This document shows positions 5,493-5,521 of a stretch of 43,051 nt of DNA, one piece after another (positions within the stretch are counted from its first letter, which is position 1; every line of letters begins with the position of its first letter). The notes under the pieces are model-generated. The model saw nothing but the letters and a program-made list of their open reading frames with translations, had not been told where the DNA came from and made no database searches. The DNA lies in the sequence record OR844702, one strand, 5' to 3'. The DNA comes from Escherichia phage ECO104 4-5-2. Made by a program: the position numbers and the translations under genes.

Positions 5493-5521
5493 TTGACACG
5501 GCACGGACGCCTAGGTATAGT
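5493..5521 (+). promoter_or_regulatory. Sigma70-type promoter (TTGACA-17 bp-TATAGT)
   Basis: Consensus -35 and near-consensus -10 with a 17-bp spacer; shares the upstream aaataagtgTTGAC signature with promoters at 38743, 39060 and 40860. Confidence 0.55.

Follow-up and report, generated by a model that had tools for sequence, protein, structure and literature searches.

The DNA analysed here (the window) is the whole 43,051-nucleotide stretch of Escherichia phage ECO104 4-5-2 (OR844702). It is a circularised assembly in which bases 1-77 are repeated at 42975-43051, so the podophage genome measures ~42.97 kb. The window is 100% identical to an unannotated record named Salmonella phage S.Kent 1-2-1 and belongs to a phiKMV/KP34-like podophage (Slopekvirinae). 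The annotated phages closest to it are PAS7 and P64441, two Escherichia phages that also belong to the Slopekvirinae of the phiKMV/KP34-like lineage. All genes are oriented along the + strand, and the non-coding genome end (Table 1) implies that the early region begins at 37466, reaches 43051 and carries on from position 1. Six candidate promoters, which we group into three classes, lie in this layout at ~0.2, 1.5/1.8 and 3.6 kb from the left end, with the 5493/5608 pair ~11 kb in. An Rfam search of the whole window at gathering thresholds returned only two group I introns and noise.

Table 1. Promoters, leaders and associated features of the window, in order of position
Feature	Position	Strand	Details
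P5493, class I promoter	5484-5521	+	block AAATAAGTG 5484-5492; -35 TTGACA 5493-5498; 17-bp spacer; -10 TATAGT 5516-5521; 11/12 hexamer matches; predicted start A5528
Short A1-like leader	5528-5607	+	AUCAACGAGGCACGGAGCC; hairpin ACCG-GAAA-CGGU 5548-5559; CAGUAG ... GAUAAG; between the tandem promoters
P5608, class II promoter	5608-5637	+	TTGACA; 18-bp spacer agcagtaacgaagtttag; TAAGAT; predicted start ~5645
Leader copy A	5645-5841	+	SD TAAGAG 5828-5833; ATG 5842
Phage RNA polymerase gene (T7-type)	11772-14351		~17 kb from left end
Genome-end region, non-coding	~37050-37460		
P37466, class III promoter	37466-37494	+	TTGACG-17-(TGt)TATGCT; 9/12 hexamer matches; TG at -15/-14
boxA TGCTCTTTAACAA	37510-37522	+	~+10 to +22 of the P37466 transcript; ~16 nt after the -10
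P38743, class I promoter, upstream copy of the duplicated site	38734-38771	+	block 38734-38742; -35 TTGACT 38743-38748; -10 TATAAG 38766-38771
Insertion, 317 bp	38770-39086	+	relative to contig L026; gene 38814-39050 (phrog_9227) and second 36-bp promoter segment
P39060, class I promoter	39051-39088	+	block 39051-39059; -35 TTGACT 39060-39065; 17-bp spacer; -10 TATAGT 39083-39088; 10/12 hexamer matches; predicted start A39095
Leader copy B	39095-39294	+	SD TTAAGAGG 39280-39287; ATG 39295; then 33-aa hydrophobic ORF
P40860, class I promoter	40851-40888	+	block 40851-40859; -35 TTGACG 40860-40865; 17-bp spacer; -10 TATAGT 40883-40888; 10/12 hexamer matches; predicted start ~40894-40896
Leader copy C	40895-41128	+	extra 5' hairpin CCGGGAGGCG...CGCCUCCCGG; SD 41113-41120; ATG 41129

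A preliminary description of this DNA had listed five strong sigma70-like promoters, at 5493, 37466, 38743, 39060 and 40860, four of them with a common upstream signature. The coordinates and sequences of all five were as described, and a sixth site, 5608 (TTGACA-18-TAAGAT), had been overlooked. The word strong can apply to at most four of the five, since 38743, with a -10 of TATAAG and no T at -7, is probably weak. The shared signature held up: AAATARKTGTTGAC occurs in exactly four exact copies in the window (5484, 38734, 39051 and 40851), each followed after 17 bp by a TATA-type -10, and allowing two mismatches added no further window site. Shuffled sequences contained 0.86 ± 0.85 such sites and none of 100 shuffles reached four. 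The four-copy signature is not a product of chance.

Hexamer matches alone, on the other hand, were not above chance. Eleven sites had at least 10 of 12 matches, against 8.4 ± 2.8 in block shuffles, and promoter-scanner totals equalled the shuffle means; ten of the 11 sites lie on the coding strand. With the hexamers at chance level, the real evidence comes from the shared block upstream of the -35, from the location of the sites at gene boundaries and from their conservation in related phages. All the promoter sites are on the + strand, co-oriented and placed at gene boundaries. A further hexamer pair at 31753 (TTGACT-17-TATAGT) was rejected as a promoter, as it falls within the P7-P9 conserved core of a group I intron. 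An ORF of 41 codons and doubtful reality (40820-40942) overlaps P40860.

We then footprinted 18 sites from three syntenic classes in eight genomes (the window, PAS7, P64441 and five IMG/VR contigs), anchored on the -35 element; many of the 18 are orthologues and hence not independent observations. In PAS7 and P64441, the AAATARKTGTTGAC-type signature occupies the same three places in the genome, and it is also present in the IMG/VR and metagenome relatives that were found via the leader (L016, L025, L026, L031, L039 and L041). TTGAC, AAATA at -44 to -40, T-12 and A-11 were invariant in all 18 sites, and T-7 in 17, the exception being window site 38743. Mean information was 1.75 bits in the -35 hexamer, 1.68 bits in the -10 hexamer and 1.47 bits from -45 to -36, compared with 0.33 bits in the nearly random spacer and 0.42 bits over the first 30 transcribed bases. 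Conserved hexamers at a fixed spacing, flanking a free spacer, point to a sigma70 promoter footprint. Within the window, all six sites have a -35 of sigma70 type (TTGACA, TTGACT or TTGACG), and five have a -10 to match: TATAGT at 5493, 39060 and 40860, TAAGAT at 5608, and TATGCT with an upstream TG at 37466. The -10 of 38743 does not conform. The spacers measure 16–18 bp, within the 17 ± 1 bp of sigma70 promoters, and are largely unconstrained in sequence.

Upstream of the -35, AAAATA(A/G)(G/T) is conserved at -45 to -38, further A residues are usual at -45 and -46, and the distal region is A/T-rich, overlapping coding sequence in two classes. Estrem et al. reportedly derived in 1999 a proximal UP-subsite consensus, AAAAAARNR, at -46 to -38, and we take the AAATA at -44 to -40 to sit at the position of this proximal subsite. 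The resemblance to an UP element of the rrnB P1 type lies in an A-tract centred at ~-42 that abuts the -35 and fits AAAAAARNR at ~7 of 9 positions. The class I block differs in its invariant T-41 and its TG at -37/-36, and only some copies have a clear distal subsite. The block also coincides with gene ends. In the mid-genome class (window 5487-5489, PAS7 10223-10225) and in most relatives of the e2 class (PAS7, L025 and L026), the upstream ORF terminates with a TAA or TAG at -41 to -39; in the e2 class, -60 to -46 encodes ...ENKLK*. This overlap implies that some of the further-upstream conservation is coding constraint. At P5493, the block extends over the final codons of the preceding ORF, an HNH endonuclease.

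P5493 and P5608 are a tandem pair 116 nt apart, flanked by the DNA polymerase/HNH genes and the exonuclease genes. P5493 has orthologues in PAS7 (10229), P64441 (21607), L026 (12894), L039 (9308), L016 (4026) and L031 (3344), and P5608 is conserved in PAS7 (10345), L026 (13021) and L039 (9184). The promoter region compared with phage T7 was that of 5493/5608. In the T7 record, A1, A2 and A3 are annotated as E. coli promoters and their start sites are given; the window starts are predicted by alignment to A1 and A2. T7 A2 (TTGACAacatgaagtaacatgcagTAAGATAC, preceded by GCCTGATAAGT) aligns with window site 5608 (TTGACAagcagtaacgaagtttagTAAGATAC, preceded by AGCCGATAAGT), the two agreeing in the -35, the -10, the 18-bp spacing and an upstream GATAAGT. 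Local alignment of 5470-5660 with T7 A1-A2 gave a score of 34, against 17.3 ± 2.5 for shuffles; this significant alignment covers the A2-like part and reaches only the 3' end of the A1-like leader (AGCC-GATAAGT onward). By visual comparison alone, there is also a likeness between the T7 A1 transcript, AUCGAGAGGGACACGG, and AUCAACGAGGCACGG downstream of 5493. The likeness to T7-group A-type promoters is thus scored for the A2-like part and visual for the A1-like part.

A blastn search with the PAS7 cassette matched Studiervirinae early regions (E 2e-4 to 3e-3) and also a Kagunavirus siphophage. The A1-like leader is likewise found in PAS7, L026, L039 and the siphophage HSE2, a Kagunavirus, whose copy shows a compensatory change in the hairpin. 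Taken together, the T7 and blastn similarities suggest that 5493/5608 is an A1/A2-type cassette placed mid-genome. As in T7, apparent promoters for the host polymerase stand in tandem on the coding strand in a podophage of the T7 supergroup and are A-rich upstream of the -35. Unlike T7, where A1–A3 lie within 250 bp at the left end, they are spread out in the window phage: 37466 alone precedes the first gene, and the others stand between early genes. In addition, the upstream sequence of T7 A1 is AAAAAGAGTA, in contrast to the AAATA block and TATAGT -10 of class I, and we saw no T7 counterpart to the long leaders that sequester the SD. A conserved terminator-like hairpin (6235-6254) follows the mid-genome cassette, which makes the supply of the downstream DNA-metabolism and RNA polymerase genes by 5493/5608 uncertain.

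As the preliminary description had it, 38743 and 39060 are both part of a 36-bp direct repeat (38734-38769 = 39051-39086, 100% identical). Contig L026 has a single promoter here, and its positions 3015-3130 combine the sequence that precedes copy 1 with the sequence that follows copy 2, which indicates that the window carries a 317-bp insertion that duplicated the promoter. The TATAAG of P38743, with five of six letters, reads as a hybrid -10 formed at the insertion junction; its missing T-7 accounts for the absence of P38743 from the scanner list. In PAS7, another gene lies between promoter and leader, with no duplication. Since the genes between promoter and leader differ, the promoter-leader junction appears to be a site of gene exchange.

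These results make it highly probable that host sigma70 holoenzyme promoters drive early transcription before the phage polymerase is made. The footprinting, the T7 A1/A2 likeness and the variable spacers all support the earlier reading of the sites as host sigma70-type promoters with an UP-like block. Judged by sequence, the class I, II and III sites are host sigma70 early promoters of a class well known in the T7 supergroup, with start sites and strengths that are predicted. What is new is the RNA modules joined to the promoters, rather than the promoters themselves.

We considered whether the AAATARKTG block might be an operator for a sequence-specific regulator, either a phage shut-off protein or a host factor, instead of a contact for the alpha subunit. 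At 2.0 bits per position, AAATA varies no more than the -35 hexamer and is tighter than typical UP elements, and the block is common to all class I promoters of a genome, as co-regulation would give. However, the same block, at the same spacing to TTGAC and TATAGT, was present in more than 120 unrelated IMG/VR viral contigs with GC contents of 29–67%, where a rough chance estimate was a few; a regulator specific to one clade does not explain this. In those IMG/VR loci, 98 other consensus-like promoter sites were A-rich at -45 to -39 too. The block also lacks dyad symmetry, and classes II and III do without it, yet lie in the same early regions. Its spread through unrelated contigs and the A-richness of the other promoters favour a generic polymerase contact over a phage-specific operator, which we consider unlikely. 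From its sequence context, the block appears to be a generic UP-type A-tract, specific neither to this promoter family nor to a clade.

Two other explanations are less probable still. The likeness among class I sites could reflect recent duplication or recombination of a module, as at a hotspot or cassette boundary, with no promoter function. The perfect 36-bp repeat flanking the inserted gene at 38743 and 39060 fits this, and so do the promoter-leader intervals, which hold different genes by phage, the module indeed acting as an exchange point. Outside the 36-bp repeat, however, the copies share only functional positions and have unrelated spacers, a signature of selection, and the likeness extends to the experimentally defined T7 A1 and A2; we regard this explanation as very improbable. 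Least probable is that the sites serve the phage's own single-subunit RNA polymerase. A T7-type polymerase is encoded, and TATAGT contains TATAG, which resembles -5 to -1 of T7 and SP6 promoters. Promoters of single-subunit polymerases are a continuous conserved block of ~20 bp, whereas the 17 bp between the hexamers differ completely among the copies and their orthologues; such variable spacers within one genome exclude a promoter of this kind. The sites are also located in the early region, upstream of the polymerase gene, and are unlike the KP34 polymerase promoter, TAATGTTACAGGAGTA, or the LUZ19 phage motif, GgtTATGTCACacACAnnGG, which lies downstream of the polymerase gene (PMC10914365).

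Under the favoured reading, host sigma70 polymerase would read the early region before the phage polymerase appears, mirroring the role of T7 A1, A2 and A3. The class I AAATA would contact the alpha C-terminal domain and raise polymerase recruitment, and class II (5608) would act as an A2-like promoter. Classes I and II would moreover be portable cassettes, each consisting of a promoter and, from +1 onward, a conserved leader RNA.

The class III promoter P37466 is the leftmost and would be the first early promoter, ~100–400 nt inside the left genome end. It was correctly described as TTGACG-17-TATGCT without the shared upstream block. It is conserved, including its spacer, in P64441 (31674, - strand), L025 (6434) and L026 (1740); in PAS7, nothing more than a weak hexamer pair precedes the boxA. 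The boxA that follows P37466 is identical to the rrn boxA (UGCUCUUUAACAA; PMC2724277), and 37511-37521, GCTCTTTAACA, fits the boxA consensus GYTCTTTAANA (PMC5725501), which shuffles matched at 0.23 sites per window. A perfect copy of this boxA occurs in L025, L026 and PAS7, and a copy with a single change in P64441. In L016, a boxA follows a 5493-type promoter, and L031 has a boxA match near a promoter, recorded as a coordinate only. GCTCTTTAACAATCTGG occurs in the early leaders of T7 and of Kayfunavirus IMEP24, so that T7 and the window phage both have a boxA (GCTCTTTAACAATC[A/T]GG) in an early leader. A search of the accessible literature for boxA in T7-like early leaders found no description.

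The position of this boxA in a 5' leader, shortly after the promoter, resembles that of the Nus antitermination sites of rrn and lambda; unlike in lambda, a boxB and an N protein are not evident in the window phage. On the P37466 transcript, the boxA could recruit NusB/NusE to early transcripts and so render the polymerase resistant to Rho over the long early and middle region. A 31-nt repeat (37571 and 38214) was rejected as a candidate phage-polymerase promoter, as it has no further copy elsewhere in the window and is absent from PAS7.

Three leaders of ~190 nt extend from +1, or close to it, as far as the start codons of small, unrelated genes. The preliminary description had 5493, 39060 and 40860 feeding them. 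This stands for 39060 and 40860, but leader copy A is directly preceded by 5608, and 5493 reaches it via the 116-nt A1-like leader. The leaders matched no Rfam family, either at gathering thresholds over the whole window or at E up to 10 over 38600-41400. Covariation of the 3' domain was assessed on 16 copies from 10 genomes. Its hairpins H1 and H3 covaried strongly, with double changes in 4 of 5 pairs of one and 6 of 7 pairs of the other. The element CUCUUAG can pair with an upstream CUAAG (100% formed, one compensatory pair) or, alternatively, with the SD, UUAAGAG, in a 10-bp helix that is 93% formed and has double changes in five pairs. The SD-type pairing is kept in two copies whose real SD has moved downstream. 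The beta-type 5' domain has compensatory changes in 13 of its 19 pairs. Leader B taken alone was not significantly stable in thermodynamic terms (z = -1.38), so the case for structure rests on covariation.

These alternative pairings are consistent with the leader being a translational switch, in which the long ~190-nt leader would end in a helix pairing the SD of whichever gene comes next. Scans with DNA patterns for the leader recovered five true relatives among 24 IMG/VR matches and two new ones among six metagenome matches; the family is rare in the databases scanned. An IMG/VR search with the Ant-like early protein (40054-40806) gave only distant prophage homologues, useless for synteny. 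An enrichment of CsrA-type GGA motifs in the leaders was dropped as a candidate feature, at ~4 per 200 nt against ~3 expected (by eye). The promoter-fed leaders are candidates for a new class of structured RNA. We further propose, as a possibility rather than a probability, that the promoters are the front end of an undescribed cis-regulatory system of portable RNA modules fused at +1, which would set translation timing and resistance to termination. Its modules may comprise the ~190-nt leader (at least two 5'-domain variants with a shared 3' switch), the boxA and the short A1-like leader.

Phages of the phiKMV-like group use the host polymerase early (PMC10914365; PMC7552054). For LUZ19, a member of the same lineage, an ONT-cappable-seq study describes five host promoters mapped at the left end (P002-P006), few phage-specific promoters and a polymerase gene far downstream (PMC10914365). 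The window phage is similar in arrangement, with several left-end host promoters, as predicted here, and a distant polymerase gene. LUZ19 differs in being a Pseudomonas phage with all five promoters upstream of the first gene, and the accessible part of the report mentions no mid-genome host pair, boxA or shared leaders (PMC10914365). The same source suggests 'long-range processivity' for phiKMV-like early and middle expression (PMC10914365). The mid-genome host pair and the boxA of the first promoter bear on how the host polymerase could express the ~17 kb of early and middle genes up to the phage polymerase gene.

The OR850875 record is without annotation and the records of PAS7 and P64441 list no promoters; the practical value of the present analysis is that it maps predicted units of host-dependent transcription in a phage that lacked annotation. 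Studiervirinae, Slopekvirinae and even a Kagunavirus siphophage have the T7 A1/A2 promoter-leader cassette and the boxA in common, and this sharing across groups suggests that the cassette and the boxA behave as mobile regulatory modules.

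The window has three copies of a structured 5' leader, at least six helices of which covary strongly across 16 leader copies from 10 genomes. None of the three window copies matched any Rfam family. The CUCUUAG motif of the leader can enter two alternative pairings, and the Shine-Dalgarno sequence is sequestered in one of them. The 5' domain exists in at least two variants, one shared by the window and the related contig L026, the other by the annotated relatives PAS7 and P64441.

We also found a short leader at the beginning of A1-type transcripts, common to T7, Slopekvirinae phages and one siphophage, Kagunavirus HSE2. 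Its hairpin shows a compensatory change (ACCG/CGGU to ACCU/AGGU). The leader looks like a promoter-leader module that has spread horizontally.

Further features of the window, with counterparts in other phages where given
Feature	Position	Strand	Details
Structured 5' leader, roughly 190 nt, three copies	5645-5841, 39095-39294, 40895-41128		Covariation
Short A1-type leader	5528-5607; T7 (L046) 119-200; HSE2 (L166) 1500-1570		AUCGA.GAGGCA.GGAGCC-hairpin-CAGUAG...GAUAAG
Exact rrn-type boxA	37510-37522		TGCTCTTTAACAA; just 3' of the first early promoter
Second perfect boxA-consensus match	35951-35961	minus	GYTCTTTAANA; antisense inside the last (tailspike) gene
31-nt direct repeat	37571-37601, 38214-38244		TTATATAATACATT(C/T)A(G/A)CTAAT(G/A)TGTGACAG
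Terminator-like hairpin	6235-6254		AGCCCTGCGTAGGAAGGGTT then TTATTA
Promoter-like site	6285-6257	minus	TGTACA-17-TGnTATAAT; comes after the hairpin
41-codon ORF	40820-40942		Strong Shine-Dalgarno TAAGGAG
Top hexamer match	25697-25725		TTGACG-17-(TGa)TATAAT; 11/12 hexamer letters
Group I intron	3356-4042		Rfam RF00028, 51 bits
Group I intron	31551-31804		Rfam RF00028, 65 bits

The boxA next to the first early promoter is kept in relatives; T7 and Kayfunavirus IMEP24 also have it in their early leaders. The minus-strand match in the tailspike gene is probably due to chance, with 0.23 sites expected per window; we record it because antisense transcripts run across the right genome end of LUZ19. 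Directly 5' of the first two early genes lie the copies of the 31-nt repeat, which loosely resembles the phage-polymerase promoter of KP34 (TAATGTTACAGGAGTA). The repeat occurs nowhere else in the window and is absent from PAS7.

The terminator-like hairpin lies about 600 nt 3' of the tandem promoter pair (5493 and 5608) and is kept in PAS7 and the related contig L039. It may mark the end of a short unit with high expression that comprises two small genes. The 41-codon ORF runs through the early promoter at 40860 and the first hairpin of the third leader copy. In PAS7 and two related contigs (L025 and L026), by contrast, the upstream gene stops at TAA/TAG within the promoter block (protein end ...ENKLK), and the ORF of the window may be a remnant. 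The gene for internal virion protein B and the gp16-like gene flank the top hexamer match of the whole window, which is enclosed by an inverted repeat (aaagggtt...aaaaccctt). The counterparts of this match in PAS7 (30596) and P64441 (1495) are identical, spacer included. The site may be a host promoter of the late region or a conserved element of another kind.

Bases 1-77 of the window recur unchanged at its other end (42975-43051). This 77-base overlap is an artefact of circular assembly, and the sequence is really 42,974 bp long. Six records (OR848265, OR846985, OR847472, OR849530, OR847174 and OR848645) bear the GenBank names 'Listeria phage LM 4-11-1 / 4-14-1'. Their sequences match parts of this enterobacterial-type phage at 99.9-100% identity, and their Listeria host label looks doubtful.

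The genome further carries two group I introns. The first interrupts the DNA polymerase region and contains an ORF (3468-4010); the second divides the terminase large-subunit gene into 31046-31618 and 31900-33123.
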